This document shows positions 910-20,700 of a stretch of DNA of 32,458 nucleotides, one piece after another. The stretch lies in contig JAHHIK010000094.1 in NCBI GenBank assembly GCA_019358935.1, positions 1 through 32,458 of the forward strand, read 5' to 3'. The notes beneath the pieces were generated by a model, which saw nothing but the letters and a program-made list of their open reading frames with translations, was not told where the DNA came from and did not search any database. This DNA is from Tolypothrix carrinoi HA7290-LM1 (GTDB lineage: Bacteria; Cyanobacteriota; Cyanobacteriia; Cyanobacteriales; Nostocaceae). Positions within the stretch are counted from its first letter, which is position 1. Each line of letters starts with the position of its first letter. A program made the position numbers and the translations under genes.

Positions 910-1036
910 TTAAGTCTCGTTTCCCTGTGTTCCGCTTTGTTTCCACCAAAGCCGATAATACAGACCCCGAAGATTGAGTAACTCTTCATGAGTACCTTGT
1001 TCAATCAGTTTTCCTCCTTCAAGTACGAAGATGCAG
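910..1036 (-). pseudogene. C-terminal remnant of an ABC exporter ATPase (MsbA/HlyB-like)
   Basis: Hand translation gives CIFVLEGGKLIEQGTHEELLNLRGLYYRLWWKQSGTQGNET*, the typical end of an exporter NBD. Confidence 0.75.
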
Positions 1037-1039
1037 GCT

Positions 1040-1364: not shown

Positions 1365-1605
1365 TTTTCTTGCTTTTCTATATGCTTTTCACGCCCTTTT
1401 TTCTCATATTTCTGCTCATGAATGCAAATCCAGGTACTTTTTCAAATTGGCGATCGCCTGTACCCTGGGAATTTCCGTAATCTCAACATTTATATGGTTA
1501 TATCAATTGCTTTTTACTACTTAAATGCTTTTTCGCTTTTGGTGTCACTTTTTTACGCTCCTATTTCTGTATTAGTGGTTTATCCCGAGAGGTGCAAGAT
1601 ATAAG

Positions 1606-1722
1606 GTAGTGATACTTGAGTAACACGCCGCAGATCGTGACCATCAAAAAGCACTGAACCCTGGTTAGGATCGTAGAACCGCATGAGTAGGTTGAGGACA
1701 CTGTACTCTTGCCAGAGCCACT
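1606..1722 (-). pseudogene. Walker A fragment of an ABC exporter ATPase
   Basis: SGSGKST, a 1-nt frameshift, then VLNLLMRFYDPNQGSVLFDGHDLRRVTQVSL; cut by the IS5 end. Confidence 0.75.
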
Positions 1723-2631
1723 AGGGCGTGTTTTCAAACTCGTTATATTCTAAAAAATAGGCGATCGCAGACAGGTGAGGTTGATGAACCGAGGAGACTT
1801 AAGTAGCGAACAGTGGGAGAGGTTAAAACCGTTACTACCACCACAAAAATCCAGAACCGGAAAACCCAATAAAGACCATCGCACAGTCATCAATGGAATC
1901 CTATGAATACTGAGAACAGGAGCACCGTGGCGAGACTTACCAGAGCGTTATGGTCCGTGGGAGAGTGTGGCAACAAGATTTTATCGATGGCAAAAAGCTG
2001 GAATTTGGAATCGAATCTTAGAGCACCTACAAGCGAGCCTCCTCCGGAGGAGCTTCGCTAACGCAGACGAATATGGTTTCTTCGATTGGCAAGTTCATTA
2101 TGTCGATGGGACAGTTGTACGCGCCCACCAGCACGCTGCGGGTGGAAAAAAGGGGGCGAAGAAGATGAGAAACTAGGTCGTTCTCGTGGTGGTTTCAGTA
2201 CAAAAATACACATACGTTGTGAAGGTAAAGGTAAACCCATAACTTTTATTCTCAGTCCTGGTCAGCGAAACGAGTCAATTTTTCTAGAACAATTAATGGA
2301 ACAAGGTTCCGTTAAGCGTTCTGGGCGTGGTCGTCCACGTTTACGCCCTTTAAGATTAGTTGGGGACAAAGGTTACACAGGTCGGAGAATCCGTAATTAC
2401 CTGCGTCGCCGTGGTATCCGGTTGACGATTCCACGACTTTCCAACGAACCACGTCGAGGCCCTTTCAGCCGTGAAATCTACCGTCAACGCAACATTGTTG
2501 AACGTACTATCAACCGACTTAAGCAATTTCGCCGCATTGCTACCCGATATGAAAAACTTGCTGCAAATTATACAGCCATGATAACGATCGCCTGCATTTT
2601 GTTATGGTTATAGTTTGAAAACACGCCCTAG
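1721..2631 (+). mobile_element. IS5-family insertion sequence (two-ORF, IS427-like)
   Basis: Perfect inverted ends CTAGGGCGTGTTTTCAAACT (1721-1740) and AGTTTGAAAACACGCCCTAG (2612-2631), including the CTAG target; orfA/orfB transposase inside. Confidence 0.92.
1784..2613 (+). pseudogene. IS5 transposase orfA/orfB with -1 frameshift site, inactivated by a nonsense codon
   Basis: MNRGDLSSEQWERLKPLLP...INGIL*ILRTGAPWRDLPERYGPW with TGA at 1904-1906 where Trp is expected; A6G slippery run at about 2146-2152; orfB has GDKGY and YRQRNIVERTINRLKQFRRIATRYEK. Confidence 0.85.
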
Positions 2632-3050
2632 GACCAACAAATGTCTCTCGGGCAAGCTGAGCAAAAGCCTTTAGATGACCAATTTTGAGTAGAAAAGTTC
2701 TGACTGTAGTCAGCTAAACTTGGACGCCTTACTTTAACACCTTCTAATTCAAGAATATGAATAAACTCATCCAATTCTTTTTGTGCTGGCGCAATACCCC
2801 ATTTCTTGGGAATTTTAGTGCCACCTATAAAGAAAAGAAGATTATAAAGCTTTTGGGGAATCCCCCCTAACAAATATTTATGTCTAGGGGGAAGAACAGA
2901 ACCTTCTAGCCTACCGACAACAACTTCCTCTAATAGATCTCATTCATTGTATGAGTTAACCACACAATCGGTTGTTATAATATCGTCACTTTCATTGCCA
3001 TCTTTATTTTTGAAAGTTTCAGCTTTGTTTTCTACTTTGTTTAGTGTCAT
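2628..3050 (-). pseudogene. Second amidinotransferase, 5' part only
   Basis: MTLNKV...CVVNSYNE*DLLEEVVVGRLEG...FIHILELEGVKVRRP...CPRD aligns with the intact paralog (CPVSSYNEWDLLEEVIVG); TGA at 2940-2942 and truncation by IS5. Confidence 0.85.
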
Positions 3051-3102
3051 GGTTCTCTACTTTCCTAGATTTCTCTATTTTATTTTTTCTCGTTCAAAGA
3101 CT

Positions 3103-4527
3103 TTAGGTATTAGATACTAGCTTGACAGCTAAGTTATCATAAATACCAATAACTTTGTTATTGTGTATGATTTCTGAGACGATAATAATACAGGGATCTG
3201 CCGAATCATCAATTTCTTTCACCGTTATCCGAAATTGAACCTTATTTTCTTCCTTCCTTACCTCACCGCGAAATTTAACAGTACTTGTTACATTCTGACT
3301 ATATGTAAATTTAAAGTTCTCAAACCTTGTATGTAAACCTAAATAGTACATATAGAAAAAAAGAACTTGGCTACAGCCCTCTATTAGCATTACCCCAGGC
3401 ATAACAGGATCATTTTTAAAGTGCGCTTCAAAGACCCAATGGTCAGGAGTAATATCTTGTTCACCTATAATTTGCCCTAACCCCCACAGTCCTCCTTTAG
3501 GATCGACGTGTAGAATTCGATTAATCATTAGCAGTTTATTGCTTGCAAGGGCGAAGGGCTTTTTCGTAAGGTACGCATCACCAAAGCAGGTACTAAAATC
3601 ACCTTCTTGCAAAGCTTGAATGTCCGAATCGCTGAACTTGGTTTTAGAACAGGTGAGGGGGGGTGAAAAATGTCGCTTTACAATTGTTTGTTCTTTGGGA
3701 ACAGCAAAGGCTGGTAACCCTCTTGAATTCTTTAGGTCTGCTTCCGAAAAATAACCTGCAGTGCCCTTGCTTCTTATTAAATGCCGATCTTTATGATAGC
3801 AGTTATATTCGGATTGAAGGAGGAAATTATTGTTAGTTTTTATCAGCTGACGGATAAATACTTCTCCGCGTATCGTCTCTCCTGGCGGAGGAAACTCATC
3901 TAGAATCTCAATCTGACTATCTAAAGCTCGACAGCGTAGTTTCCCTTCAAACATCATGTCACAACCTATGTAAGCAAGAGCCAGAAGGATGGCGTGGGAA
4001 GCTTCAAAGGGAATTAATCCAGTTAGCTGATTATGGACTGCATAAAAGCTGTCTGGAGGAATGTCATACTCCCACTCGATCATGCATGGCTCTAACTTAC
4101 CTCGCTCAGCCGTCATCTTGGTCACTCGGCTAACGAACATAAAAGGGGGTAAAGGGGTACGGGTACGTATGGGGTATGAATCCATTTCTTGATAATAATC
4201 ACCCAGTACATTAGAGATTTTGCCCTCCACAATTTCGGTAATTTGTTCTAAATTCCAAACAACGCTTTTTGATTCAATATCTGCAATTATGCTGTCAGTT
4301 TTAATTGGTTGGTATGATATGTCTGGTATAGTTGCAAACACTTTATCTTGTGATATTTCAACAGACGATTGAGGTAAAGTTGTTTCTTCAGCTAGAAGTA
4401 TATCTGTTGTAAAGCTACGTCTGAATTTTTCATAAAATGTGTATTGATTTTGCAAAAATAAATGCTGTAATTTGGCATTTGCCACGATTTGACTTTCCAT
4501 AAAGACTTGTTTTTGGTTGAGCAACAT
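3103..4527 (-). CDS. PfaC-like FabA-type dehydratase (DH) domains; C-terminal half of an interrupted KS-CLF-DH gene
   Basis: PLPPFMFVSRV...WEYDIP and HFKNDPVMPGVMLIEG hot-dog motifs; ATG 4527 has AAGGA 7 nt upstream; the ORF-track start at 4722 lies inside an inserted repeat element. Confidence 0.8.
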   Translation of the reverse strand: MLLNQKQVFMESQIVANAKLQHLFLQNQYTFYEKFRRSFTTDILLAEETTLPQSSVEISQDKVFATIPDISYQPIKTDSIIADIESKSVVWNLEQITEIVEGKISNVLGDYYQEMDSYPIRTRTPLPPFMFVSRVTKMTAERGKLEPCMIEWEYDIPPDSFYAVHNQLTGLIPFEASHAILLALAYIGCDMMFEGKLRCRALDSQIEILDEFPPPGETIRGEVFIRQLIKTNNNFLLQSEYNCYHKDRHLIRSKGTAGYFSEADLKNSRGLPAFAVPKEQTIVKRHFSPPLTCSKTKFSDSDIQALQEGDFSTCFGDAYLTKKPFALASNKLLMINRILHVDPKGGLWGLGQIIGEQDITPDHWVFEAHFKNDPVMPGVMLIEGCSQVLFFYMYYLGLHTRFENFKFTYSQNVTSTVKFRGEVRKEENKVQFRITVKEIDDSADPCIIIVSEIIHNNKVIGIYDNLAVKLVSNT

Positions 4528-4579
4528 GAGTTTATCCTTTGTGCAATGATTATCTGAAAAAGGCTTAACTTGTGTGATA

Positions 4580-4778
4580 TTGAAGAAAGGCAGAGGGCAG
4601 GAGGCAGCTATGCTGAAGGAGCAATCGGATGGGGATTCAAACCCCAACCGATTGAATCCACCGTGTAGACGGTGGGGTTTTATACCCAGTTGGCTCCAGC
4701 CAGAAGGCTGAATCAAAGACATAATTTATACCTTCTGCCCTCTGCCCTCTGCCTTCTGCCTTCCGCCGAAGGCGGATA
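4580..4778. mobile_element. 199-bp MITE-like insertion with inverted STRR-like heptamer ends
   Basis: GGCAGAG/GGCAGGA heptamers at 4589-4607 are inverted relative to CTGCCCT/CTGCCTT heptamers at 4731-4762; internal hairpins at about 4622-4654, 4658-4675 and 4762-4776; GATA at 4576-4579 and 4775-4778 is a possible target duplication. Confidence 0.7.
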
Positions 4779-4785
4779 ATTTGAG

Positions 4786-4867
4786 ATTCTCTATGTTTAA
4801 ATTGCTTAACTGTACCCAAGTAAGGGAAGGTTCATAACGCTACTTATTCTCAATGTTTAAATTGCTT
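4786..4867. repeat. 22-bp direct repeat (21/22 identical) with 60-bp period
   Basis: ATTCTCTATGTTTAAATTGCTT at 4786-4807 and ATTCTCAATGTTTAAATTGCTT at 4846-4867. Confidence 0.9.
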
Positions 4868-7627
4868 GATATTATCTTCGCAAAGGATAATATCTCTCAT
4901 CCTTGTCGTACCATTGAACAAGGTTTTAACCACTCCTTTGCGAGGAACAATGTTAGGTAGCGCTTGACCATTGTTTTGCTGAAGCTCGGAATAATGGCCT
5001 TTACCTAAAATAACATGGGCAAAGGAATAGTCATTACTCATTCCGTTAACAGCAGCAAACCGTTTACGTTTGTTATGCGATGGCTCCCATGATTGAGCAA
5101 ACTGCTGCATGGGTACACTTGGGAGAAAGCGATGATAAAGACAAAGAGAGGTTTTTATGATGCTTGCTATGCCTGACAATACAAAGCTGTTACCGATATT
5201 AGTCTTAACTGAACCGACCTGTTTTTGCTCAAGAGAATAGAGCTTGCTCAACCCCACTATTTCATCACTGTCTTGTACACCAATACCACTTTGAGTTAGC
5301 TCTAGATATCCCACTTCTTCAGGTTTAACTTTGGCTTCTGCTAAGGCAGTTGTAGCTGCTTGATACACACGGTCAGCTTCAACTTCATTTCCATTCCCTT
5401 GGACAATTGCAAGCGATTCAATCGTGGCATAAATCCTGTCTTTAGCTTTTTGTGCGTCTTGTGTTCGCTTAAGCACGATCGCTCCTGCACCTTCACCAAA
5501 GGGAGGAGTATCCTTGTAAAGCTTTTTGCGCCATTCTACGTGTTCCCAAGTCCCTGCCCGATCGATAGCTCCTACTACTACAGCATCTACTTTCCCAATC
5601 TCCAGTAGGAGTCTGGCTACTTCGATTGCTTTGTAGACAGAGTTTTCTTGGCTCGACAGCGTAAAAGCAGGTCCTGTAAAATTCCATAAGGCTGAAATAC
5701 GGCACGCCACTATATTTCCTATCAATCCCGTCATCCCTTCCACAGAAAGACCGGGTGAAATACTATCCTTCAAAATGGATTCCAGTTTACTCACTTGGAT
5801 ATCCGTTAATTTAATGTTTAATTTATCAAGGCTTTCCCGCAAGTACTTGGGCATATTGACCCGGGTAGTGGTGCGGTGAGCGGTGAGATTCATTTCTGTA
5901 GCAATGATGACAGCTGTGTTGCTGAAAAGCTGTTCCTGGGTGAAACCAGCATCACGCAAAGCCACATCAGCCACTTTCATCATGAGTAAATGGTCAAATA
6001 TGAGAGGTCCGGTTTCGTTAGGGGGAACTTTGAAGGCAGCACAATCAAAATCAAATTTTTCCAAGTAGGCTGCTTTTGGTGCGGGTTCAACTAGCGTCTC
6101 CTCAGCCCCAGCCCAACGCGAAGGTGGCAAGGATTCCATCAGTTCCCGACCGTGATAGAGCGCAGAGGCAAAAGCATCAAGTCCAACGACTTCCCCAATG
6201 TGCATATGCATCCCGACAATAGCTAGGGGGCTTGGCTTAGTCTCTCTGGGCTTGATGACAAGTGGAGTCGGCTTAGTGGTTGCGGGGATATATTCTCTCA
6301 GGATCAGATGGGCGTTGATTCCGCCGAAACCAAATGCATTCACCCCAGCCCTTTTGGGTCGGCTTGTCTGCGGCCAGGGAGTATTTTCTTGAATGATATT
6401 TGCAGAACTTATAGTTCGATTTTGGGATACGATAGCATCCTGAATGCCAATGGTAGCTGGGATGATCCCTTCTCTCATTGCCCATATGACCTTGATCATA
6501 CTGGCCATGCCAGAAGCTGTCAGTATGTGACTTATATGGGCTTTATTGGCTCCCAGCATCAGTACTTTATGCTTGTCCGCAAAGAATTCCTCTAAAGAAT
6601 TCAGTTCCGTCCGATCGCCCACACGGGTTCCCGTTGCATGGCATTCTATATAATCTGGTGGTTCGGACTGCTGATAAGCCCGTTCAAGAGCAAGGTATTG
6701 TCCCTTTTTTGACGGACTCAGGATATGTTTCCCTCCTCCATCATTGGATAAGCCGATGTTTTCGATCACAGCATATATGCGATCGCCAGCTTGTTCTGCA
6801 TCCCTGAGCCGCTTTAAAACAAAAATACCTGCTCCCTCTCCTATTTTGATGCCTTCGGATGATTGATCGAAAGGGATACTCTCTCCCTGGTTAGGGAAAG
6901 CATGAAGCACATTAAACCCATGGATAGCAAAAAGGCGTTCAGGAGAGCACACCGCGCCAGCAAGCATCATATCTGCCTGACCAGTTTTCAGGTAATAAGA
7001 AGCTAGTTCCATGACATACAAAGAACTGGCGCAAGCAGAATCAATCGTGTAGTTAATTCCTCCAAGTCCCAAACCGCTACAGACGACACTAGCTGGTAAG
7101 CTAACAGCTATAGCGTTGTCGGGAGAAATATTTAGTTCCGACGTTCCCTCGTCAAAATGGAAATTTTGATGACTTAGGAGTTTTTTGACAAAGTATTCCA
7201 ACGCTTTTAAGTGCATTGATGAAAACAGTTTGCTAGAATACTCTATTGGAAAAGAGAGATTGCCTAAAATTAGACCTGTTTTTTTTAAAATTTCTTGAGC
7301 GTAAAGATAGCCACTATCTCTAAGAGCTTCCTTTGCTGCATAGAGAGACCAGTGAAATATCCTATCTAGGGTGATTAGCTTTTCAGCGGGGAGTTGATAG
7401 CCATTAGGATTAAAGCTAAATCCCCGAATATAACCGTTTTTAGTATAGCTAATCTTGTCTGGCGTTCCCTGCTTTGGATGGTAATACATTGATGGCTCTG
7501 TGCCCAAATCCTCTGCAGTCAGCTTAGAAGTGACATCTAACCCATTTATCAGAATTTTCCAAAAATCTGATGGACTTTTTGCGTTGGGAAACAGACAACC
7601 GATTCCAACAATAGCAATCTTATCCAT
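4850..7627 (-). CDS. PfaC-like ketosynthase plus chain-length factor (KS-CLF)
   Basis: KS motifs DSACASS, ECHATGT and NAFGFGGINAH; the second KS-like domain lacks the catalytic Cys (SSQENS); RBS AAGGAG upstream of ATG 7627 (MDKIAIVGIG). Confidence 0.9.
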   Translation of the reverse strand: MDKIAIVGIGCLFPNAKSPSDFWKILINGLDVTSKLTAEDLGTEPSMYYHPKQGTPDKISYTKNGYIRGFSFNPNGYQLPAEKLITLDRIFHWSLYAAKEALRDSGYLYAQEILKKTGLILGNLSFPIEYSSKLFSSMHLKALEYFVKKLLSHQNFHFDEGTSELNISPDNAIAVSLPASVVCSGLGLGGINYTIDSACASSLYVMELASYYLKTGQADMMLAGAVCSPERLFAIHGFNVLHAFPNQGESIPFDQSSEGIKIGEGAGIFVLKRLRDAEQAGDRIYAVIENIGLSNDGGGKHILSPSKKGQYLALERAYQQSEPPDYIECHATGTRVGDRTELNSLEEFFADKHKVLMLGANKAHISHILTASGMASMIKVIWAMREGIIPATIGIQDAIVSQNRTISSANIIQENTPWPQTSRPKRAGVNAFGFGGINAHLILREYIPATTKPTPLVIKPRETKPSPLAIVGMHMHIGEVVGLDAFASALYHGRELMESLPPSRWAGAEETLVEPAPKAAYLEKFDFDCAAFKVPPNETGPLIFDHLLMMKVADVALRDAGFTQEQLFSNTAVIIATEMNLTAHRTTTRVNMPKYLRESLDKLNIKLTDIQVSKLESILKDSISPGLSVEGMTGLIGNIVACRISALWNFTGPAFTLSSQENSVYKAIEVARLLLEIGKVDAVVVGAIDRAGTWEHVEWRKKLYKDTPPFGEGAGAIVLKRTQDAQKAKDRIYATIESLAIVQGNGNEVEADRVYQAATTALAEAKVKPEEVGYLELTQSGIGVQDSDEIVGLSKLYSLEQKQVGSVKTNIGNSFVLSGIASIIKTSLCLYHRFLPSVPMQQFAQSWEPSHNKRKRFAAVNGMSNDYSFAHVILGKGHYSELQQNNGQALPNIVPRKGVVKTLFNGTTRMRDIILCEDNIKQFKH

Positions 7628-7688
7628 TGAACCTATCACTCCTTGCGAGCAAAACAACATTTCTAACTTTTTACTGACAAAAAACTTG

Positions 7689-7925
7689 TCAAAAATCTGG
7701 TTTTTCAGCTTGCTCTTGCACTATTGTTGCGTTCATGCGACAGATATCTGCGTTCATTATATGATAAAAATTGTCTTCATAACTGTTGATGAATTTCTTT
7801 TGCGATACTTCGTTGTCTTTCTGAGGTTTCAGAAAGAGCGTTACGTCAAACCGTTCTTGTAAGAAGAAAAACAACCTAGCTTCCCACCTGGCAAGGATAC
7901 GTTGTAAGCTTTCCAATTGCAACAT
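7689..7925 (-). CDS. Small hypothetical protein (78 aa)
   Basis: GAGGAGG RBS 6 nt before ATG 7925 (MLQLESLQRILARWEARL...); co-oriented within the operon; no recognised motif. Confidence 0.4.
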   Translation of the reverse strand: MLQLESLQRILARWEARLFFFLQERFDVTLFLKPQKDNEVSQKKFINSYEDNFYHIMNADICRMNATIVQEQAEKPDF

Positions 7926-7943
7926 AAAAAACCTCCTCGAAGT

Positions 7944-8043
7944 CAATAATAGGAAACACCGCCCAATGAAATTTTCTGGAAATATTCAGGGATATTCGCG
8001 CCGATAAACAAACAACCTATTCCAAAATGGCAACTTTATCCAT
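7944..8043 (-). pseudogene. Degenerate duplicate of the KS-CLF gene 5' end
   Basis: AAGGAGcgtaAGGTTCgATGGATAAAGTTGCCATT vs AAGGAGtgatAGGTTCaATGGATAAGATTGCTATT; after a 1-nt gap it reads MDKVAI-GIGCLFIGANIPEYFQKI vs MDKIAIVGIGCLFPNAKSPSDFWKI. Confidence 0.7.
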
Positions 8044-8072
8044 CGAACCTTACGCTCCTTTTTGTAAGTTTT

Positions 8073-9659
8073 TTATACGGCGGTCGGGATGCTCAATGGA
8101 CTACTCACAACGATTTGCTCTACAGCCTGCTCATTGGCAACACAAAATTCATCTCGACAGAATTGAGTACCTAAATTAACAGGAATAAGGTCAACATTTT
8201 GCTCTTTATAATAACTTTTAAGCGTTGAGTCCATCATTCCCCGTTCCCAGGGACCCCAGTTTATTGAAACAACACGACTCTTGGGGAAGAGATATTTAAA
8301 AGAGTAAGCAAATTTATTGAGAATTTCGTTAGCTAGGGCATAATCCGTCTGACCTGCATTCCCGAAATAGCCAGCTACAGAAGAAAATAGCAAGATATAT
8401 TTCAGCTTCTCTGGATTGACAATAGAGAGTAAGTTTTCCAATCCCTTAATCTTGGGTTCGAGTACTCGATTAAAATCTGACTGTGATTTTTTCTCAATCC
8501 GCTTATCTGCTAAATTCCCTGCCCCGTGGATGATACCCGTAATCACTCCTATATCTTCTTGTACTCTCTCAAGCTGCTTCTCTAGATCGGGTTTATCGGT
8601 AACATCTGCACTGATGTAAATTGCCTCTCCACCGCAGTATTTTACACGGTCTAAAGTATTTTGAATTTCACGTTGCGATATTAAAGCATACAGAACCTTG
8701 TCAACCTCAACGGGAGTTGGTTTCTTTCCTTTTTGGATAATATCGTCAATAATATGCTTTTTGAGTTCTTTCTCATCGGTGCAGTTTCTAGCCCAATCAG
8801 GCTCACAGGGCTGCAAAGCTGTACGTCCTAATAAAATGAATTTGGATTTATAAGTCGCTGCAAGTTCCACTACACAGTCAGCGGTAATGCCGCGTCCTCC
8901 ACCACTTACTAAAAATACGCTCTCTCGATCTGGCGTCTCCTGACGATTCTCGACAACTCTCCTTATACGCTCTAGGATTAAAGTCATTCTCTCTGCTTGA
9001 GTACGCCCAACTTCCACCAAGCCAGAATTTGGATCTGCCATTTCTTCTATTACGATATTTGCAGCTTCTTCGACGTTAATACTGGGATCTAAATCGATAT
9101 GACGGCAATAAACATTTGCCCATTCACGGTGTAATGATTTGACCAAACCTGATAAACCGCCACTGATGATAGAACAAGCTTTTTTACCGGACGTTCCCAT
9201 CTGACCATCAAGCTGGGTAACGTTTAAAAAATAGGCATTACTACGATGTTTCGCATATGCATTCAGAGAAGGTTTTAGATGTTTAGCAAGTAAAAAGACT
9301 AATTTGACTATTTCTTTATCGTCTTCCTGAAAAAGATCGCTTAACGATGAAGCGGTTCTAGTCGGTGGATGCGCGTGGATAAACCCTCCAATCTGACCAA
9401 ATTTTTCTTGAATCATACTCAGAGTTTCCTTGAGGTGCGATTCTGTTCCATCACTAAGCTCTACTACATCCATCATTGTCTGAGCGTTTGATTGATTAGA
9501 AATTAAGTGGGCGGGAAAGTTCAGGATGACTGTTTTATGATCCAGCCCACACAGCTTTTCTGCTAAAGCAGTTCCTAAGCCGTCTCCTCCCTCAGTGATT
9601 AGCCAGATATAACCCTCAGCTAACCGCAGTTCCCGTTGGTCGGGTTTGCTCAGGTATTT
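8073..9659 (-). CDS. PfaA-like ketoreductase (KR) portion; frame is open upstream to the A9 run
   Basis: VSGGGRGITA, HGAGNLADKRI and FSSVAGYFGNAGQTDYALANE; first ATG is at 9476, but the 61 upstream codons (KYLSKPDQ...WLITEGGDGLGTALAEKL) are open and PfaA-like. Confidence 0.88.
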   Translation of the reverse strand, partial: KYLSKPDQRELRLAEGYIWLITEGGDGLGTALAEKLCGLDHKTVILNFPAHLISNQSNAQTMMDVVELSDGTESHLKETLSMIQEKFGQIGGFIHAHPPTRTASSLSDLFQEDDKEIVKLVFLLAKHLKPSLNAYAKHRSNAYFLNVTQLDGQMGTSGKKACSIISGGLSGLVKSLHREWANVYCRHIDLDPSINVEEAANIVIEEMADPNSGLVEVGRTQAERMTLILERIRRVVENRQETPDRESVFLVSGGGRGITADCVVELAATYKSKFILLGRTALQPCEPDWARNCTDEKELKKHIIDDIIQKGKKPTPVEVDKVLYALISQREIQNTLDRVKYCGGEAIYISADVTDKPDLEKQLERVQEDIGVITGIIHGAGNLADKRIEKKSQSDFNRVLEPKIKGLENLLSIVNPEKLKYILLFSSVAGYFGNAGQTDYALANEILNKFAYSFKYLFPKSRVVSINWGPWERGMMDSTLKSYYKEQNVDLIPVNLGTQFCRDEFCVANEQAVEQIVVSSPLSIPTAV

Positions 9660-11011
9660 TTTTTTACGAGCTGTCTCTCGATAGCCACTTGCTGATGAAG
9701 ATTGTCTGATGGTTGCGTTGTTTGGTCACCTGACGAGTATTCCTTCAGGTAGTCTATAATTTTAGCCAGTGTTCGCAGTTCTGCGATAACTTCAGTATCT
9801 AGGACAATATTTGGGAACTCGTCCTGTATGGCGGCGAAAATCTGTATCTGCTTAATTGAATCAATGCCGAGATCTGCTTCCAGATCCATATCCATATCCA
9901 GCATATCGATTGGATACCCAGTTTTGTCGCTAACCACTTCCAACAATCGATTACTAACTTTAGTAATATCAACGGAGTTTGTAGATCGAGCGCTCACCTC
10001 GGGAGCAACTGGCGCGGTACTTGGGACATTGGTAGAAGAAGTGCTCTCTACAGAATGATTAATGGTTTCTGAAATGGTGGTAACTTGCTCTAAGGTAGGG
10101 GTAACCTTAGGTAATGTTGCAGCTGTTGCAGATGTAGGCGTACTGCTAGCTGATTGGCTTGTTGATGCAGCAAGCCCTTCTGGCTTCGCAGTCTCTACAG
10201 GATGACTAATGGTTTCTGAGGTGATGGCAATTGGTTGTAAGGTAGGAGTAACCTTAGGTAATGTTGCAGCTGTTGCAGATGTAGGCATACTGCTGGCTGA
10301 TTGGCTAGCTGATGCATCTATAGACTTTTGCCCTTCTGGCTTCTTTGAAGGAGAAAGCGCGGTTTCAGTTGAGGTAGTAGGGTAATTGGGTACTCGGCTC
10401 GGAGGAGCATCATTCAGCGTATTGGATGAACGGGGAACCTCAGGTAACTGTTCAGTCACTGGAGGCGTAGTTACATTGCTGGCTGATTGGCTAGCTGATG
10501 CATCTATAGACTTTTGCCCTTCTGGCTTCTTTGAAGGAGGAAGCGCGGTTTCAGTTTCGGAATTAGGAAAATTGGGTACTCGGCTCGGAGGAGCATCATT
10601 CAGCGTATTGGATGTATTCGTTGAAAACTGTCCTCCTCGGATTAAAGCCAATTGATTCTGTAAATAACCTTCGTGATTAGCATTATAGTGAGACTGATTG
10701 TTCTGCAAAATCTGTAAAATTTGCTCTAGATTTTGCATCATTGTGGGAAGAACAGGAGAATTGTGATATTTTTCAACCAATATCATTTGATATTCAACCA
10801 GCTTTGACAGCAAGTCGATATATTTTCCCTGATTGTGATGGAATTGCTGATGTACTGCGCTTAACACATTTTGTACCTGAATCTGAGCCATGATCTCAGT
10901 CTGATTCACTACATGATAGGCTGGCTCATAAAACTTTTGAAGAGGGCTGTTCTCCCCATTAACAGAATAAAGATCGTTTTTGATCATGGATGTCTCTCTT
11001 GTTTGATTCAT
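9650..11011 (-). CDS. PfaA-like middle portion: helical segment, Pro/Ser/Thr-rich linker and a single ACP
   Basis: VVSDKTGYPIDMLDMDMDLEADLGIDSIKQIQIF is a Pfa-type ACP signature; RBS AAGGAG 6 nt before ATG; ends in A9 (LVKKNT*). Confidence 0.88.
   Translation of the reverse strand: MNQTRETSMIKNDLYSVNGENSPLQKFYEPAYHVVNQTEIMAQIQVQNVLSAVHQQFHHNQGKYIDLLSKLVEYQMILVEKYHNSPVLPTMMQNLEQILQILQNNQSHYNANHEGYLQNQLALIRGGQFSTNTSNTLNDAPPSRVPNFPNSETETALPPSKKPEGQKSIDASASQSASNVTTPPVTEQLPEVPRSSNTLNDAPPSRVPNYPTTSTETALSPSKKPEGQKSIDASASQSASSMPTSATAATLPKVTPTLQPIAITSETISHPVETAKPEGLAASTSQSASSTPTSATAATLPKVTPTLEQVTTISETINHSVESTSSTNVPSTAPVAPEVSARSTNSVDITKVSNRLLEVVSDKTGYPIDMLDMDMDLEADLGIDSIKQIQIFAAIQDEFPNIVLDTEVIAELRTLAKIIDYLKEYSSGDQTTQPSDNLHQQVAIERQLVKKNT
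10046..10613. repeat. Nested in-frame tandem duplications in the ACP linker (147-bp and 186-bp periods)
   Basis: 10091-10139 recurs at 10238-10286 (PTSATAATLPKVTPTL twice); 10291-10353 recurs at 10477-10539 (PSKKPEGQKSIDASASQSAS twice); SNTLNDAPPSRVPN twice. Confidence 0.9.
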
Positions 11012-11063
11012 GACTTTCTCCTTGCTTGGAATGGCATTACTCTATGTATTCTCAGGTTGGCAT

Positions 11064-14024: not shown

Positions 14025-14171
14025 TATTATTCCCTCTCCACGTATTAGAAGGCTTTTAGCTACTAAGCTAATAAGCATTCAATTTGCACGAAATAGCAAG
14101 AAAAATGAATGGTGATTAGCTTAGTGCCATGTGACAGTTTAAAACTTTATTTTTTCAATATGATTGCAAGG

Positions 14172-15365
14172 TCACGAATAGGACTGAAGTACGCCGCGCC
14201 TGCGGACATCCAGCGTCGCGCAATGGAAAGAACCTAAGAAAGGATAATAATCCTCAAACGTGCATATGATAGGTTTAAATCCCCAGTCCTTCAGTGCCCT
14301 AATCATGGACTCCTGAGATTTTTCGACGATGACTCGCTCTTCGTCTAGACTAAGTACGTTCATGTTTATCCACTGGCTGATCACCTCTGTTCCATAGAGT
14401 GTCTTGGGCATCCTGTTGGGTTTAGGCGCGATCAGGACATCCCATGACTTAAAGTAGTCAGGAAGATTTTCAACATCTAAGTTTACCGGATTTACCATCA
14501 CCTTCCCTGGAGCGAGGGGTATCAGTGTGGTGTCAATGTGCAGTGCTTGCGGGCAGCGCGACTGTACCATGTGAATGCGGTATTCGTCGCCCAGGTGACG
14601 CTGCAACCATTCGATACCAAGGCTATTGGTGACATGGCTCTTCTGTACAAAGATATCACGTCCACAGCGCACAAAGTCTGCCGCATCAAAGGTCGGCTCA
14701 AACTCGGTGATCACAAAGCGCATCTCCTCACCAGGTTCAGGAACTTTGTAATTTGGGTCATAAAGTGCATCGACCAACTGAGGTCTGGGAGCAGCAGTCC
14801 ACTTGGCTCCTGCCTTGAAATACTCCTTGAGCAGGGAGCGATAGGGCCAAGTCTCGAAATAACGACCGCGATCGGCCATTGGAGCCTCGATGATATCATT
14901 CCCGACCACTATGAAGGCATCGCGCGGATTTGCGGCACTGAAACCATTCAGTATCTTCCAAGAGGGTGTGGAGTAAGACGCGGAAAAGTCCATAACATCA
15001 GGTCGGCGTACTACAACCCCTTCCGATTCGAGAATATGGACGAATTCCTCAAGGCACTTCTTAGCAGCCTGAATAAAGCTCTTCGGATAGGCAAGTCGCT
15101 GGGTTTCCATAATCTTGCTCAGTTCGTCCAGTTTATCATCCTGGTTAGGAGGTACGACTGCCCGATATATCGTGTGCCAAGATGGAGCCATTGCCCCATT
15201 GACAATGCCGACTATGACTTCCTCAAGGAGGTCCCATTCATTATAGGAACTCACGGGACACGTGTTAGCGTCTACGGTACTTGTATTAGAGGTTATGGTA
15301 CTTGTATTGCTTTTCATCGGTTCTATGTTTAAGGTAGTGGGTAATTTTGAAGTTCTGTTGTTCAA
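14172..15365 (-). CDS. Amidinotransferase (glycine/inosamine amidinotransferase family, CyrA/SxtG/StrB-like)
   Basis: SYNEWDLLEEVIVG, NPRD, FDAADF, LHIDTT and GSFHCATLDVRRRG (Asp-His-Cys triad); alternative start ATG 15317. Confidence 0.92.
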   Translation of the reverse strand: MNNRTSKLPTTLNIEPMKSNTSTITSNTSTVDANTCPVSSYNEWDLLEEVIVGIVNGAMAPSWHTIYRAVVPPNQDDKLDELSKIMETQRLAYPKSFIQAAKKCLEEFVHILESEGVVVRRPDVMDFSASYSTPSWKILNGFSAANPRDAFIVVGNDIIEAPMADRGRYFETWPYRSLLKEYFKAGAKWTAAPRPQLVDALYDPNYKVPEPGEEMRFVITEFEPTFDAADFVRCGRDIFVQKSHVTNSLGIEWLQRHLGDEYRIHMVQSRCPQALHIDTTLIPLAPGKVMVNPVNLDVENLPDYFKSWDVLIAPKPNRMPKTLYGTEVISQWINMNVLSLDEERVIVEKSQESMIRALKDWGFKPIICTFEDYYPFLGSFHCATLDVRRRGVLQSYS

Positions 15366-15475
15366 TTCTCAAGAAACACTCGTTGAAATGACAGCATCAT
15401 GGGGATTTGGTCAATTGTGTTTCTCTCATCCATTCCGTGTTCTTCACGCAAGCTCGTCTCCTGTCATCCTTAAAA

Positions 15476-16681
15476 TTAATTTTTGAGAATTGCAAGAGGA
15501 TATTGTTTAGCAGGAGGAGCTATAAAGCCTTGTTCAATGCAGTAGTTTAAGTAGGTTGAGATTAAGTTAATATCAATATTGGGGCAGGAAATACCTTGCT
15601 TTGAAAGAAAGTTTTGTGCATTTGATGTATCAATCTCAACAGTTGTATAAAATAGCACAGAATCTGGTGGAAATTCTGGACCTATTAAAGAATATGAAAA
15701 GAGCAGCACCTTAGTAAAAGAAGAACTGTAAATTTTACCTTCTTTTTGAATCGCATTATTTTTTAACAGCGATACATATTCTTGAAAGGGAATTATTTTT
15801 ACTCTATAGCCAAAATCAACGAGAAGATTGACAAAGTCATAACAATATTTCCGCTCTGGATTGACAATGTGAAATGTTTTACCATAAGCCTCTGGATTAA
15901 ATGCAAGGTAAAGAGAGGATGTTGCCGCATAATCTACCGGGGTTAGGTAAAAATAATCCTTTGTAAAATAGAAAACCCTAGTTTCAACAATGGTCTTAAT
16001 GATATCGTAATATACCCCTGGGGTAGTTGTATTTGTCAGGGGATAACAACCTGTTTTACTGTCACCTAAAACATCACCAAGCCTCACAATTACCCATTTT
16101 AGTCCTCGGTTTCCAGCTGAATGGATGAGCTTTTCCGCTCTCATTTTAGTTAGCTCATAATTCTGATATTCAAAACTCTGTCCTACATCAAGATCGCTTT
16201 CTCTGAATACAAAACCTGGTTTCATCATTTTATTACCCACCACACTATAGGTAGATGTGTATAACATTGGAATATGACCAGTTAAACAAAATTCAACAAC
16301 TTCCGAAGTACCTTGCAGATTGATCTTAGCTAATTTGTCATATCCAGCTATCAAACTCACATTTGCAGCTACATGAAAAACTTGCTCTATCTGCTGGACA
16401 AGTTGATAGTATTCTTCAGCTTTTAAACCAAATTTCGGTTTAGTAATATCCCCAATTATAGCAGTTACTCTTGATTCAAATTGCGAATGCAAGCTATTCT
16501 TGGGATCGTAAATTGCAAGGATATCAGCAATTCTTCTTTTTGCTTTTTGTACATCCTCTGCTCTAACCAGGCAATACACGTTTGCTTCTGTATAAGCAAG
16601 AATTTCATATAGAATTCTTCCTCCTACTACCCCTGTTACACCTGTTAGAAAAATATTTTCACAAGCAACAAATCTCATCAT
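15476..16681 (-). CDS. Stand-alone thioester reductase (NAD_binding_4 / R domain)
   Basis: IFLTGVTGVVG, VYCLVRA, GDITKPKFGL, FHVAANV, YELTKMRAE. Confidence 0.88.
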   Translation of the reverse strand: MMRFVACENIFLTGVTGVVGGRILYEILAYTEANVYCLVRAEDVQKAKRRIADILAIYDPKNSLHSQFESRVTAIIGDITKPKFGLKAEEYYQLVQQIEQVFHVAANVSLIAGYDKLAKINLQGTSEVVEFCLTGHIPMLYTSTYSVVGNKMMKPGFVFRESDLDVGQSFEYQNYELTKMRAEKLIHSAGNRGLKWVIVRLGDVLGDSKTGCYPLTNTTTPGVYYDIIKTIVETRVFYFTKDYFYLTPVDYAATSSLYLAFNPEAYGKTFHIVNPERKYCYDFVNLLVDFGYRVKIIPFQEYVSLLKNNAIQKEGKIYSSSFTKVLLFSYSLIGPEFPPDSVLFYTTVEIDTSNAQNFLSKQGISCPNIDINLISTYLNYCIEQGFIAPPAKQYPLAILKN

Positions 16682-16687
16682 GATGAT

Positions 16688-17470
16688 TTAACTCAACTCT
16701 GTGATTTCGACCGTACCAATGTTCAGACCTCCGTCCAATGTGAGTACTGCTCCGTTCAGGTAATCAGTTTTACACGTAGCGAGAAATAGAACTATTTCAG
16801 CAACATCTTCAGGATTCCCAAAACGGCCAACAGGAACGAAGTCCAGCACCCTCTTTTCAATAGAAAAAGAACTTTGCTTTTCAGCACGTTTTAGCATTTG
16901 GGTTTGGCATACACCAGGGGCTATTGCATTGACACACACACCAAAGGAACCCAGTTCTCTTGCCCAAGATTTAGAAGCAGCAATCATACCTGCCTTGGAA
17001 GCAGCGTAAGCAGAAGCAAAACCCGCTCCCCAAATTCCTAAAAGAGATGCAACATTAATGATGCGTCCGTATCTCCTTTTGACCATGAACTTGGAGAAAA
17101 TGCTGGTGCAATAATATGCCCCAATCAAATTAACATCAATCACCTTCTTTACTTTCTCATAATACTCCGTCAATAAAATGGGAGTACGTTCAAAAATTCC
17201 GGCATTATTAACTAAAACGACAATACAATCGCCGAAAATGCTGGTAATTTGCTCTGCTGCTTTTTGAATGCTTTGAGTGCTACATACATCCATAAAAAAC
17301 AAGCCTAATTTTTCAGAAGACTCTACAGAATTTTTCAAGTCTTCAAGTTTCTCTTCAGAAACATCTGTTGCTGCGACACAAAAACCTTCTGCCAGCAACT
17401 GCTGAACAATCTGACGTCCAAATCCTCCTGCGGCTCCTGTTACGACTGCTATTTTATGCTGATTGTGCAT
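16688..17470 (-). CDS. FabG-like SDR (3-oxoacyl-ACP reductase)
   Basis: VVTGAAGGFG, LVNNAG, YAASK, VNAIAPG; likely start ATG 17470, after the aminotransferase stop. Confidence 0.9.
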   Translation of the reverse strand: MHNQHKIAVVTGAAGGFGRQIVQQLLAEGFCVAATDVSEEKLEDLKNSVESSEKLGLFFMDVCSTQSIQKAAEQITSIFGDCIVVLVNNAGIFERTPILLTEYYEKVKKVIDVNLIGAYYCTSIFSKFMVKRRYGRIINVASLLGIWGAGFASAYAASKAGMIAASKSWARELGSFGVCVNAIAPGVCQTQMLKRAEKQSSFSIEKRVLDFVPVGRFGNPEDVAEIVLFLATCKTDYLNGAVLTLDGGLNIGTVEITELS

Positions 17471-17498
17471 ATGATAGTTACTGCTCACTTTAGAAAAT

Positions 17499-18824
17499 TT
17501 AAAAACTCCCAAAAAGTCTTTGGGCTTCAGCCATTGCTTCACCTATCCTTTCCTTGAAAAAACTCACATCAGATTCATCCATGAGCAGGTTACTGTAAAA
17601 TCTAGAAATCGGCGAAAATTGGATACCGTACTCCTTACAAATCCGGGTGATCAGAACATCCTGAATCTTAGTACTTTTTTCGTAATCTCCAGCACTCTGA
17701 ATGAGTTCTGCCTGAGAATGAAAAACTAGCACATTGGGTAGTCCTTGAACCACCATTGGTATTCCTAAGCTCTTTGCCGCTTCCACAAGAGACTGACCTA
17801 TCTGAATCAGGTAATTCCCCATCCTCTCGTAACATGAGGAATCATTTTCAAGCAACTCAATGGTTGCTAACACAGCAGCTAATCCCAGTGGATAACCATT
17901 GAATGTTCCGGCGTGGATGACTTTTTGATCCCCATAGAGTTGCATGATTTCCTTCTTGCCAACAATGGCTGACATCGGTAGAGCTCCTCCAGCCATTGCC
18001 TTAGCAAAAACAGTAATATCAGGTGTAACGCCTAACAGAGATTGTGCCCCACCGAGAGCTACTCTAAAACCAGTAATCACTTCATCAAATATGAGTGCTA
18101 CATGATGACGATCACAAAGTTCTCTGACCTTTTCCAAATACCCTTGTTGAGGTAGTATGCCTCCTCCATTAATACAGATAGGCTCCATGATAACAATGCC
18201 AATCTCGTCGCCGCGCTTTTGCAACAGATTTTCTAGCGCTTCGCTATCGTTCCATGGAAGTAGGAAAGATTGCTCTTGCAAAATATTGGGAGCGCGTCCA
18301 TCAGTCCCGAGAAAATCTCCTTCATAATCCACAGGGACAGGATGATCGGCAGATTCTGGTTTACCTCCCATAATATTGTCTGCATTACCGTGATAATGTC
18401 CCTGAAATCGGACAAATTTGTGCTTACCGGTATAAGCTCTGGCAAGCCTAATAGCATTCTGCACAGATTCAGTGCCACTCAGACCAAAACGTACCATTTC
18501 AGCACTGGGCACATGATGAATAATGCGTTCGCAAACAAGTCCTTCCAAATCGCATTGATCGACAGAAAGTACTTTATTCATGTAGTTGATTAACTTTGCC
18601 TTGTATTCCTCGTTGCCGTGTCCTACAATCAAAGCACCAAACTTACAAAAAAGATCGAGATGCTCATTACCATCCAAATCCCATACTCTCGATCCTTTTC
18701 CTTTACTAAAGGGTATCATAATATCTTTTATGCGATAACGGAAGTTGTAGTGGACTCCGCCTGGTAGATAGTTCTTTACCTGCTGGACTACTTGCTGAGA
18801 TTGAGGAAATTTAAGTTTCGGCAT
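17499..18824 (-). CDS. Class III PLP aminotransferase (GSA-aminomutase-like, PKS AMT type)
   Basis: KGSRVWDLDGNE, SGTES, FQGHYHG, LIFDEVITGFR, FAKAMAGG (PLP Lys), HAGTFNG. Confidence 0.9.
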   Translation of the reverse strand: MPKLKFPQSQQVVQQVKNYLPGGVHYNFRYRIKDIMIPFSKGKGSRVWDLDGNEHLDLFCKFGALIVGHGNEEYKAKLINYMNKVLSVDQCDLEGLVCERIIHHVPSAEMVRFGLSGTESVQNAIRLARAYTGKHKFVRFQGHYHGNADNIMGGKPESADHPVPVDYEGDFLGTDGRAPNILQEQSFLLPWNDSEALENLLQKRGDEIGIVIMEPICINGGGILPQQGYLEKVRELCDRHHVALIFDEVITGFRVALGGAQSLLGVTPDITVFAKAMAGGALPMSAIVGKKEIMQLYGDQKVIHAGTFNGYPLGLAAVLATIELLENDSSCYERMGNYLIQIGQSLVEAAKSLGIPMVVQGLPNVLVFHSQAELIQSAGDYEKSTKIQDVLITRICKEYGIQFSPISRFYSNLLMDESDVSFFKERIGEAMAEAQRLFGSF

Positions 18825-18967
18825 TGCAAGAATTCCTTATTAACAACTTGGGTTAAATAGTTAAAGCTCGGACGATAATGAGATTCACGCATGTTACATT
18901 TTCAAGGAGAATACTGATGCTTAAATCTCTTTCCAAACGACACCTATTGAGAAGAATAAATTAAAAA

Positions 18968-20581
18968 TTATGGTGTCACTTTATAGGTTCCATAATGTGT
19001 ACCATAGTTTACGCCTAGCCCGTTGAGCAGACGAAGACGAAAGAGATAAGCGGCTCCTCTCATCAGATGATAAGCAACATCAACAACATGACGGTTTTCT
19101 GGTTTCTCTAAGTATGACCCCTTTGCCCATTCATTAAACGCACCCATCGCTGGACCGCACCACACCTGGTAATCCATTTTTCGCTCGTGTACCCCAGCGC
19201 TAGCCCAACGAGATGATTTCCCAAGGTACCACTTAAAAATAAGGGCCATTTTTTTCTTCGGGTTGTCTAAAGCTTTCTGAATTTGACTAGGATCGCGCTC
19301 CGAAAAGAACTGAACAGTTTCATCCCATACTGTATCCAAATCCTTTTGAAAAAGCTCCTTTTCAATTTTTTGCCTCTCTACTGCTGGAATTTCATCGATA
19401 GAATTATACTGCCTGTAAATTTCATACAGTTTGTGAGCTCGCATCGCATAAAGTGTTCCTCTTTTTAAAACTTGTACCTTTACACCCATCTCAAACATAT
19501 CTGCAGCTGGAGACATGGCAACATCTGCAATATCTACTTGGGCTAATGAGGCTTTGACGGCTTCTGATGTACCGGATTCTAAACAGGCTTGATTCACTGA
19601 GCCAGTCACGACATAATCTGCTCCCATCATAAAAGCAGCCAACACTGCTTGGGGAGTGCTTATCCCACCTCCCGCCCCGACTCGAATGTTTTTTTCATAC
19701 TGATACTCCGCCTGAATCCGGTCTCTGATCTGTTGAATAAAAGGGAGCAGACAAATCAGCGGTCTGTTATCTGTGTGCCCAGCTGAATCTGCTTCTACAG
19801 TGATATCACTTGCCACAGGAACCAAGCTCGCCAAAGCAGCTTGTTCTTGAGTAATTAGACCTTGTGATACCAAATCCTGCAGTATCTTCTCTGGGGCTGG
19901 CTTCATGAATAGCTCAGCAACTTCTCTCCTAGAAATTTTGGCAATCACATGATTTTTAGCTGCGATCTGACCATGACTACTCTGAGAGAGCCCAGCGGCG
20001 TGATAATAAACAAGGTTAGGCGTCAAGTTCATAAAAGCAGATGCTTCTACCGTTTTTACGCCGTATTTGAGATACAACTCAACACATGCTCTTTCCAATT
20101 TCGGTTCGGAGGGGCTGTGAATAAGATTGAAGGCATAAGGGGCATCAGGAAGATTAGCTTGGAGGGTTCTGATGGCTTCTTCCACTCGCCTTAGAGGTAA
20201 ACCAGCCGCGCCAAACGAGCCCAAATATCCTTTTCTACCTAAAGAAGTTACCAAATCAACCGAAGCAATACCATTAGCCATAGCCCCTGCGTGATAGGCA
20301 TAATTCGTGCCGTGATCTTTTTTAAAAGCATTGCTACCAAGCCACTCAGGCTTTAAGGCTGGTATCAAGCCTGAACAATCGTAATCTCCTTTTGGCGAGA
20401 TTTCTCCACCCTTAGCGAGTGCAATGCCGGAATGGGTATGCAATACATAAAATGCTGTGTCTAGATCGTGTAAACAACGCTCAATTTGCGTCGCATCGGT
20501 TGCTATCAGATAATCCGACCCTTTCCATTTTAAGGGTGTACCAATGCTGTTTTCTTTGAGAAGAAGACTATTATTAATCAT
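18968..20581 (-). CDS. pfaD: PfaD-family enoyl reductase
   Basis: AGAMANGIAS, GSFGAAGL, EADSAGHTDNRP, PAADMFEMGVKVQVLKRGT, DYQVWCGPAMGAFN; likely start ATG 20581. Confidence 0.95.
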   Translation of the reverse strand: MINNSLLLKENSIGTPLKWKGSDYLIATDATQIERCLHDLDTAFYVLHTHSGIALAKGGEISPKGDYDCSGLIPALKPEWLGSNAFKKDHGTNYAYHAGAMANGIASVDLVTSLGRKGYLGSFGAAGLPLRRVEEAIRTLQANLPDAPYAFNLIHSPSEPKLERACVELYLKYGVKTVEASAFMNLTPNLVYYHAAGLSQSSHGQIAAKNHVIAKISRREVAELFMKPAPEKILQDLVSQGLITQEQAALASLVPVASDITVEADSAGHTDNRPLICLLPFIQQIRDRIQAEYQYEKNIRVGAGGGISTPQAVLAAFMMGADYVVTGSVNQACLESGTSEAVKASLAQVDIADVAMSPAADMFEMGVKVQVLKRGTLYAMRAHKLYEIYRQYNSIDEIPAVERQKIEKELFQKDLDTVWDETVQFFSERDPSQIQKALDNPKKKMALIFKWYLGKSSRWASAGVHERKMDYQVWCGPAMGAFNEWAKGSYLEKPENRHVVDVAYHLMRGAAYLFRLRLLNGLGVNYGTHYGTYKVTP

Positions 20582-20651: not shown

Positions 20652-20700
20652 CCACCATCAGTACATCGTTACCCTGTTGCAGAATTTAAAATCAATATTG

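Follow-up and report, generated by a model that had tools for sequence, protein, structure and literature searches.

The window analysed here is an entire 32.5-kb contig (JAHHIK010000094.1, 32,458 nucleotides) of the 7.96-Mb genome of the cyanobacterium Tolypothrix carrinoi HA7290-LM1, a genome whose neighbours within the family include Nostoc, Calothrix and Scytonema. Its minus strand carries a gene cluster in which a Pfa-like multidomain synthase is combined with a class III aminotransferase (AMT), a stand-alone ketoreductase (KR), a thioester reductase and two amidinotransferase genes (Table 1). An original prediction had read the cluster as a candidate long-chain guanidino-lipid pathway, and all the genes it named were found on the minus strand and in the order given there. 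The cluster extends beyond position 2628, where that prediction ended it, to a gene fusing an acyl carrier protein (ACP) to another domain (309-854) and to an amidase fragment (122-255). ACP and KR, taken as one unit, lie in separate frames offset by -1 at a run of nine adenines (A9), and the second amidinotransferase, taken as a working gene, is a pseudogene.

The stand-alone enoyl reductase (ER) is 74-96% identical to its orthologues in the cluster family, 51-54% to the ER of Zmn12/FclE type and 60% to HglA of the same genome. Lys275 of the AMT, which binds pyridoxal phosphate (PLP), is unchanged in 9/9 aligned sequences. The extra KR is 47-52% identical to the gene at the same position of zmn/fcl-type loci, and the thioester reductase, with invariant Tyr175 and Lys179, is 38-42% identical to its counterparts there versus 30% to the genome's own heterocyst-glycolipid (Hgl) reductase. 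Residues Cys243, His378, His418, Ser711 and His817 are invariant in the ketosynthase-acyltransferase protein (KS-AT). The ketosynthase-chain-length-factor protein (KS-CLF) has no AT domain; it is fused to the FabA-type dehydratase (DH) in one gene in 9 of the 10 other clusters of the family. A DH start at 4722 was dropped, as it lies within a dispersed repeat. Counterparts of the extra ACP gene are present in eight of the ten other clusters, and its N-terminal domain gave no Atlas match.

Table 1. Features of the cluster in order of position in the window (IS, insertion sequence; MITE, miniature inverted-repeat transposable element; PRMT, protein-arginine methyltransferase; PKS, polyketide synthase; ORF, open reading frame)
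Feature	Position	Strand	Basis
Amidase-signature enzyme, 5' fragment (45 codons), cluster member	122..255	-	96% to G005 amidase start
Type II-like ACP with N-terminal domain, cluster member	309..854	-	NCBIfam acyl carrier protein
ABCB-type exporter remnants	860..1725	-	90% blocks to G005 and G432 exporter genes
IS5-family element at deletion junction	1721..2631	+	DDE transposase; 20-bp inverted ends
Amidinotransferase 2, pseudogene	2628..3050	-	93% to residues 1-136 of intact 386-aa G005 gene
FabA-type DH didomain	3103..4527	-	Pfam FabA; His178, His369, Glu383 invariant
200-bp dispersed MITE-like repeat between KS-CLF and DH	4580..4779	.	About 40 near-identical genome copies; absent from G005
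KS-CLF	4850..7660	-	Two KS domains (Pfam); Cys199, His330, His367 invariant
PRMT-fold methyltransferase gene, 5' fragment (85-aa ORF)	7689..7946	-	79% to residues 1-73 of 364-aa G433 gene
Pseudo-KR and KR, -1 frame, PKS-type DH gone	8073..9665	-	KR Lys342, Ser366, Tyr379, Asn383 kept
A9 slippery run, ACP to KR in -1 frame	9665-9657	-	Same length and offset in 11/11 family clusters
Linker and single ACP, short product of 453 aa	9650..11011	-	PP-binding, residues 355-422
KS-AT, N-terminal part of split PfaA	11064..14078	-	TIGR02813 above PfaA cut-off
Amidinotransferase 1, intact, SxtG-like	14172..15365	-	Matches to solved amidinotransferase structures (PDB)
Thioester reductase, Zmn14/FclG-like	15476..16681	-	TIGR01746 above cut-off
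Stand-alone KR, Zmn13/FclF-like	16688..17470	-	Pfam adh_short (SDR)
Class III PLP AMT, orthologue of Zmn12/FclE AMT domain	17499..18824	-	55-60% to zeamine/fabclavine-type loci
PfaD-type ER, stand-alone	18968..20581	-	TIGR02814 679 bits (cut-off 449)

Kinship of the synthase

The cluster operates like a zeamine/fabclavine polyamine synthase yet stands outside those clusters. With Zmn10-14 of Serratia plymuthica and Dickeya, whose proposed chemistry is set out in PMC5811116, it shares PfaA/C/D homologues without PfaB, an AMT, an extra KR, a thioester reductase and one ACP; the zeamine II synthase is described as PfaA/C/D-like, with no PfaB and one ACP (PMC3547906). It differs from Zmn10-14 in that the AMT is separate from the ER (in the window and in all 10 other clusters), PfaA is split, nitrilase, nonribosomal peptide synthetase (NRPS)-PKS and condensation enzyme are missing, and one or two amidinotransferases, an extra ACP and an amidase-signature enzyme are present. 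The absence of nitrilase-like and NRPS-PKS genes had already been remarked on, and none was seen among the window's ORFs or domain matches; neither these nor a condensing enzyme occur in the window or in the family neighbourhoods examined, and the only nitrilase-like match of the source genome (30%) lies on a different contig. The gene order ER-AMT, KR, thioester reductase, proposed as common to these clusters, stands for KR and reductase, which follow the AMT, but not for ER and AMT, which are separate genes, and the position relative to KS-AT differs.

Used as a query on species genomes, the AMT recovered 49 loci, mostly from Nostocales or of zeamine/fabclavine type. Compared with Serratia plymuthica, identity is 58% for the AMT, 51% for the extra KR, 42% for the reductase, 54% for KS, 48% for KR, 53% for ER and 41% for KS-CLF, and the zeamine-type polyamine machinery read in the original prediction is upheld, with the PLP lysine kept. 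In a FastTree phylogeny of the KR, the window family joins Desulfamplus and Zmn/Fcl with a support of 1.00, and Hgl and Pfa fall outside this group. Placement with Zmn/Fcl was obtained for the KR but not throughout: the KS tree, in which five rows of 32-33% identity represent the wrong paralogue and are usable as an outgroup only, gives the window family no firm position, and ER and KS-CLF are not nearer to Zmn/Fcl than to Hgl-like proteins. Four loci from marine gammaproteobacteria (L037-L039, L041) have zeamine-like cores followed by a protein of unknown function, a nitrilase and transporters, and no NRPS lies closer than 10 kb to the aminotransferase.

For FclC-G, amidination is not described, and host phylum and gene order are different. 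The Hgl synthases (type F secondary lipid synthases) resemble the cluster in their hosts, Pfa-like synthase, reductive release, similar exporters and a run of A after the ACP, but have neither AMT nor amidinotransferase. Hgl clusters are defined by the HglE/G/D/C/A/B arrangement, an AT in HglC and no aminotransferase (PMC3098273); the window does not fit this definition. The source genome has its own Hgl cluster, together with a phosphopantetheinyl transferase, on contig C77, separate from the window and only 30-60% identical.

Amidinotransferases and their linkage to the synthase

The protein encoded at 14172-15365 has no Pfam or NCBIfam match. Among solved structures, amidinotransferase 1 scores 566 bits to SxtG, 323 to HsvA and 304 to the glycine amidinotransferase AGAT, and paralogue 2 scores 477 bits to SxtG versus 330 to AGAT. 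Asp149, Asp227, His276 and Cys382 are retained in all family members, and the Cys-His-Asp set as well as fold-wide homology are present in copy 1 and in the intact copy-2 orthologues. The two paralogues are 58% identical to each other and form separate clades (100/100 each in a 30-row tree), paralogue 1 grouping at 100/99 with a protein that carries motifs matching those of SxtG. SxtG and HsvA have the same fold and the same catalytic residues, and both use amines other than glycine; as opposed to the saxitoxin pathway, sxtA and other sxt genes were not found in the window.

The residues Asn300, Met302 and Arg322 line the AGAT pocket, and Arg322 binds the carboxylate. In an alignment covering AGAT, SxtG and HsvA (CyrA was not among the sequences), these residues correspond to Gln, Leu and Asn in copy 1 and to Gln, Met and Tyr in copy 2; the Arg322 position is Phe in SxtG, Trp in HsvA and Asn or Tyr in the window family. 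SxtG takes various primary amines, acts on the free amine and has four named acidic pocket residues (PMC12371840). Two of these, Glu255 and Glu276, are replaced by Gln and Val in amidinotransferase 1, pointing to a pocket less acidic than that of SxtG, and both clades probably accept lipid amines. Because both enzymes lack an equivalent of AGAT Arg322, score far higher to SxtG than to AGAT, and are accompanied in relatives by guanidine-tailoring enzymes, we favour late amidination, as the original prediction did, over a guanidino(acetate) starter, although carrier-fused homologues (see below) point the other way. No loading adenylation domain had been noted, and indeed neither the window nor the annotated neighbourhoods of the family contain an adenylation or ligase gene. 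Elsewhere, in G028:C1 (L013:12699-17255), a 70%-identical amidinotransferase adjoins an adenylation-ACP-aminotransferase protein, possibly another lipid-guanidine pathway, and G434:C120 (L081:9388-13944) has a tandem pair of amidinotransferases between glycosyltransferase and epimerase genes.

The variant with amidinotransferases is conserved in scattered Nostocales and in at least one distant lineage. The marker aminotransferase occurs in 14/389 genomes of the family, the window's included, and in a wider order-level sample in 1/401, which is again the window's genome. An amidinotransferase is found with pfa-like genes in 11 of the 12 scorable other genomes, the thirteenth contig being too short to score, so that the linkage proposed as a test of the original prediction is conserved. 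Ten of these (G005, G432-G435, G534-G538) have the full architecture, with both amidinotransferases in nine and paralogue 2 only in G435. The eleventh, G585, is an Hgl hybrid in which about 25 kb of one gene run separate paralogue 2 from the aminotransferase; there (G585:C77; L092, L093) the aminotransferase and a reductase-ACP fusion precede an Hgl-type synthase, which is followed by a carbamoyltransferase, a Rieske oxygenase, exporters and amidinotransferase 2. These counts overstate independence, because the genomes are kin and five come from one genus. Between intact clusters, five core genes have dN/dS of 0.12-0.16.

Among 73 metagenome loci recovered by paralogue 2, of which three duplicate genomes in the above count and many are too short for a decision, two further ones are pfa-linked (L177 and L179). 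The latter (L179:1-11107), at 62% GC, encodes KS-AT-ACP, an A9 junction, KR-DH, DH, aminotransferase, KR, reductase and amidinotransferase, and adjoins NADH dehydrogenase genes. No amidinotransferase was found near the AMT in the 10 of about 35 proteobacterial loci that were examined, nor in Desulfamplus.

A probable frame change after the carrier domain

The ACP frame ends one or two codons past the A9 run (two in the window), and the pseudo-KR goes on in the -1 frame. The run and the offset are present in 11/11 clusters of the family and also in the metagenome contigs L177 and L179, and an error of sequencing or assembly was therefore ruled out, as the same arrangement recurs in 11 genomes of several genera and in two metagenome contigs. 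In 10 of the 11 loci the junction run is the sole coding-strand run of at least nine A, and its length is always nine although the phase differs between clusters; genome-wide, 99 A9/T9 runs occur in 7.96 Mb. Zeamine-type, Hgl and Pfa proteins are continuous across the corresponding point. The first downstream ATG ranges from codon 62 to codon 155, and the segment between the run and the first start is under coding constraint, with 65% amino-acid identity and differences of 0.36 at third versus 0.21 at first and second positions.

Programmed recoding at the A9 run is, in our view, quite probable from these sequence comparisons. Since no conserved hairpin follows the cyanobacterial run, slippage of RNA polymerase would be slightly likelier there than a ribosomal shift. 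Nine-A runs are known polymerase-slippage sites, a nine-A reporter cassette shifted at 40%, and the dnaX site consists in some species of A_AAA_AAG and a 3' hairpin, in others of 9-10 A, with reversed polarity also known (PMC5009743, PMC3711429). As for tau and gamma of dnaX (same sources), a short and a long product would arise from one gene; unlike in dnaX, the predicted site divides the carrier from the reductive domains of a megasynthase.

Comparable signals were found in related synthases. In the zeamine/fabclavine-type loci compared (L032, L040, L042-L072), A_AAA_AAG or A_AAA_AAA stands in phase, exactly three codons ahead of a -1 stop, in 24/34 and a linker heptamer of reversed polarity is present in 4/34, giving a signal in 28/34 overall, while the background is four such heptamers in 24,562 downstream codons. 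An 11-pair hairpin lies 3' of the heptamer: 87% of cells are paired, five pairs covary and 0/500 shuffles reach its score, in related sequences and for a hairpin defined from the structure of one member. RNAalifold gave no consensus for the 28 zeamine-type sites. In HglE, a run of ten A directly follows the last ACP in 31/31 loci (G000:C77, L101-L130, L092), with no other run of at least eight A in 25,629 codons; the source genome has just 11 A10/T10 runs. Desulfamplus and five Hgl-like cyanobacterial loci (L160, L166-L169, L172) have the reversed polarity, with a stop in frame and the long ORF in -1 after 8 to 11 A. The 28 canonical multi-ACP PfaA loci (L132-L159) are continuous and without a long A run; A_AAA_AAG stands at the start of the pseudo-KR in 8/28 and slightly earlier in one more. 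We found no report of recoding in Pfa-like synthases in a search that left most subscription journals outside, and the term "frameshift" is absent from the accessible parts of PMC7214866, PMC3098273, PMC3547906 and the supplement of PMC9113149.

Could the ACP/KR junction instead be no more than a split gene, in which translation re-initiates at a near-cognate codon and the A9 run enhances initiation? Several observations weigh against recoding: the structure after the cyanobacterial run is weak and distant, 6/34 zeamine-type loci have no heptamer, and a near-cognate start, CTG or TTG, overlaps the ACP stop in 9/11 clusters. NTG is also found at codon 11-12 in 10/11, and split pfaA genes have been described (PMC3098273). 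On the other hand, G432 and G434 have no such overlap and the first ATG varies widely in position; the run is exactly nine in every cluster despite its differing phase; the Leu is conserved in continuous homologues; and the same kind of site, in both polarities, recurs in the related synthases. We therefore regard re-initiation as distinctly unlikely and retain recoding as our reading.

State of the window's copy and predicted product

Judged against the sister genome G005 (93-95% DNA identity), the complete pathway with two working amidinotransferases that the original prediction implied is not present in the window, whose copy is decaying. Amidinotransferase 2, whose start is at 3050, is interrupted by an in-frame stop at codon 37 (2942-2940) and truncated at 2631 by the IS5-family element, the transposase of which (1721-2631) is itself spread over two frames. 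About 3.3 kb of the G005 cluster are gone across this element, including a glycosyltransferase and most of an ABC exporter, and the exporter remnants are broken by a second IS fragment (1038-1608) with an IS-like match elsewhere in the genome. The missing pieces, including the rest of the amidase, were not found elsewhere in the assembly. Amidinotransferase 1 has a window-G005 dN/dS of 0.13; the overall window-G005 value of 0.30 is inflated by the short divergence. Counting G005 and G434, which also bear lesions, 3 of the 11 copies are affected.

Some 800 bp encoding the PKS-type DH are replaced by a stray KS-CLF start (7956-8062, an 82% copy) followed by the methyltransferase fragment, leaving 530 codons from the A9 run versus 810-823 in orthologues. 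We considered this loss as fatal and rejected the idea: the window KR ends where the DH-less FclC ends, the polyamine-only fabclavine cluster of Xenorhabdus bovienii functions without NRPS and without a PKS-type DH, and deletion of that DH merely shifts the product from deoxy to hydroxy polyamine (PMC9113149). The window strain would yield at most a simplified, hydroxylated product, or nothing, and that it makes any product at all has less than an even chance. Since it is decaying, this copy is a poor choice for expression.

By analogy with Zmn10-14 and FclC-G, KS-AT and KS-CLF would elongate with malonyl units on the ACP, and KR, FabA-DH and PfaD would carry out the reductions. At set cycles the AMT would introduce a beta-amine in place of reduction, the extra KR would leave the last hydroxyl, and the thioester reductase would release an aldehyde that is then transaminated. 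The two arginine-dependent amidinotransferases would amidinate the amines, in the simplest division one the terminal and one the internal amines, and in some strains the product may be methylated, prenylated or glycosylated before export. KR(-DH) would be made only through a -1 change at A9, by RNA-polymerase slippage or ribosomal frameshift, yielding two proteins, the ACP product of 453 aa and a longer ACP-KR(-DH) product of roughly 980 aa. In the window strain, amidinotransferase 2, glycosyltransferase, exporter, amidase and PKS-type DH are lost. Taken as a whole, the reading of the window as a decaying member of a Pfa-like family that makes a long alkyl polyamine and then guanidines is, on these analogies, somewhat better than an even bet; the product is likely a cationic amphiphile and, on balance, would be a long-chain (poly)guanidine lipid.

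Tailoring genes in relatives fit with a guanidine product. The G433 gene of which the window keeps a 5' fragment has a PRMT fold (Atlas TM 0.70-0.78; profile E 3e-35 to PRMT). G534, G535, G537, G538 and G432 encode an all-helical protein (model pLDDT 90) that resembles terpene synthases and prenyltransferases, its best structure match having Z 14.6 and a root-mean-square deviation of 3.8 over 220 aligned residues, with no Foldseek match under E 0.001. Its conserved DxxxE motif has been described for the guanidine prenyltransferase Aer3 (PMC12371840), and we offer the predicted model's assignment to the Aer3/AgdS type as a lead only. DevB/DevC-type exporters, GT1, GT2 and GT-C glycosyltransferases and a fatty-acid hydroxylase stand beside several clusters.

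A number of findings tell against this interpretation of the product. The PRMT-fold gene is complete in just 1 of the 11 clusters and the prenyltransferase-fold gene is present in five; G473 has the aminotransferase only, with no pfa gene or amidinotransferase within about 37 kb; and for ER and KS-CLF, Hgl-like synthases are at least as near as Zmn/Fcl, for which reason chain length and amine spacing (one amine per eight carbons in zeamine/fabclavine products) are not transferable from zeamine. Near homologues of amidinotransferase 1 (P0009, P0010, P0016; 70-75%) are fused to carrier domains, so that amidination may take place on the ACP. The guanidine would then be added during assembly, to a beta-aminoacyl-ACP or to a short amino starter on the extra ACP, and might cyclise; the extra ACP of most clusters and the G028 enzyme next to an adenylation-ACP-aminotransferase protein agree with this. 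We consider it unlikely, given that no adenylation or ligase gene accompanies the family in its annotated neighbourhoods and that both enzymes are SxtG-like, not AGAT-like, SxtG using a free amine (PMC12371840).

The exporters, glycosyltransferases and fatty-acid hydroxylase near several clusters, the nearness of ER and KS-CLF to Hgl-like proteins and the fusion of the module to an Hgl-type synthase in G585 could also indicate an envelope glycolipid with guanidino or amino groups, as a variant of the heterocyst glycolipids, rather than a secreted antimicrobial. The genome already has a complete Hgl cluster on C77, however, and a patchy distribution (14/389) with lesions in 3/11 copies fits a dispensable specialised metabolite, which makes an envelope role quite improbable; the chemistry would be that of a guanidino-lipid all the same. 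That the amidinotransferases are passengers beside a synthase for an unmodified zeamine-II-like polyamine is highly improbable. A polyamine-only cluster does exist in X. bovienii (PMC9113149), and the Desulfamplus core has no amidinotransferase, but the genes are embedded and co-oriented in 11/12 scorable genomes and on the 62% GC contig, are under purifying selection and have guanidine-type tailoring genes alongside.

Searches combining zeamine, fabclavine, PUFA (polyunsaturated fatty acid) synthase or thioester reductase with amidinotransferase or cyanobacteria gave no description of the family in the literature covered, with most subscription journals and MIBiG outside it. In the accessible main text of a 2026 survey of Pfa-NRPS hybrids, "amidino" is absent (PMC13291983). 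The co-occurrence as such is already tallied, because a 2026 preprint counts, in its accessible part, six hglE-KS/PUFA clusters with amidinotransferases, which it does not describe (10.64898/2026.09.06.749771). We propose tentatively, and with some doubt, the combination of long-chain polyguanidine lipids, for which our searches gave no described bacterial pathway, with a general -1 recoding after the ACP in Pfa-like synthases of low ACP number. Such recoding would cover the window family, zeamine, fabclavine and heterocyst glycolipid synthases and, if true, would tune the amount of carrier relative to reductive domains, the role that tandem ACPs play in PUFA synthases; Zmn10, FclC and HglE would exist as unrecognised short and long isoforms, a testable prediction for enzymes already studied. 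The KR N-terminus lacks a proper start codon, and heterologous expression would therefore fail if the A run were lost in annotation or codon optimisation. The family would also be a genetic model for building polyketide-derived guanidines, and its intact clusters, several in number, compact at about 20-25 kb and free of NRPS genes, predict new nitrogen-rich cationic lipids from soil and mat cyanobacteria; Nostoc sp. UHCC 0252 (locus L028) and the G534-G538 strains are examples of intact-cluster carriers.

Scans of the window for promoters and terminators gave chance level only, an Rfam search gave no match, and a plasmid search none at E 1e-100. A divergent response regulator and CHASE2 histidine kinase at 29418-32183 show no link to the cluster. 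Upstream of pfaD, the TauD, methyltransferase, ABC-2, citrate-synthase-like and GMC genes (20701-28173) were considered as part of the core and rejected, as they are missing from the other clusters. The citrate-synthase-like gene occurs in 2/389 family genomes, and its second copy is accompanied by an MFS pump and a TauD-type dioxygenase, the 12.9 kb examined containing no pfa gene. In the window these genes form a co-oriented cassette (20578-28436: TauD-like, methyltransferase, ABC-2 pair, citrate-synthase-like, GMC oxidoreductase) bounded by a 74-bp direct repeat that copies the 5' flank of pfaD, and the cassette seems to have displaced the native upstream region of the cluster.

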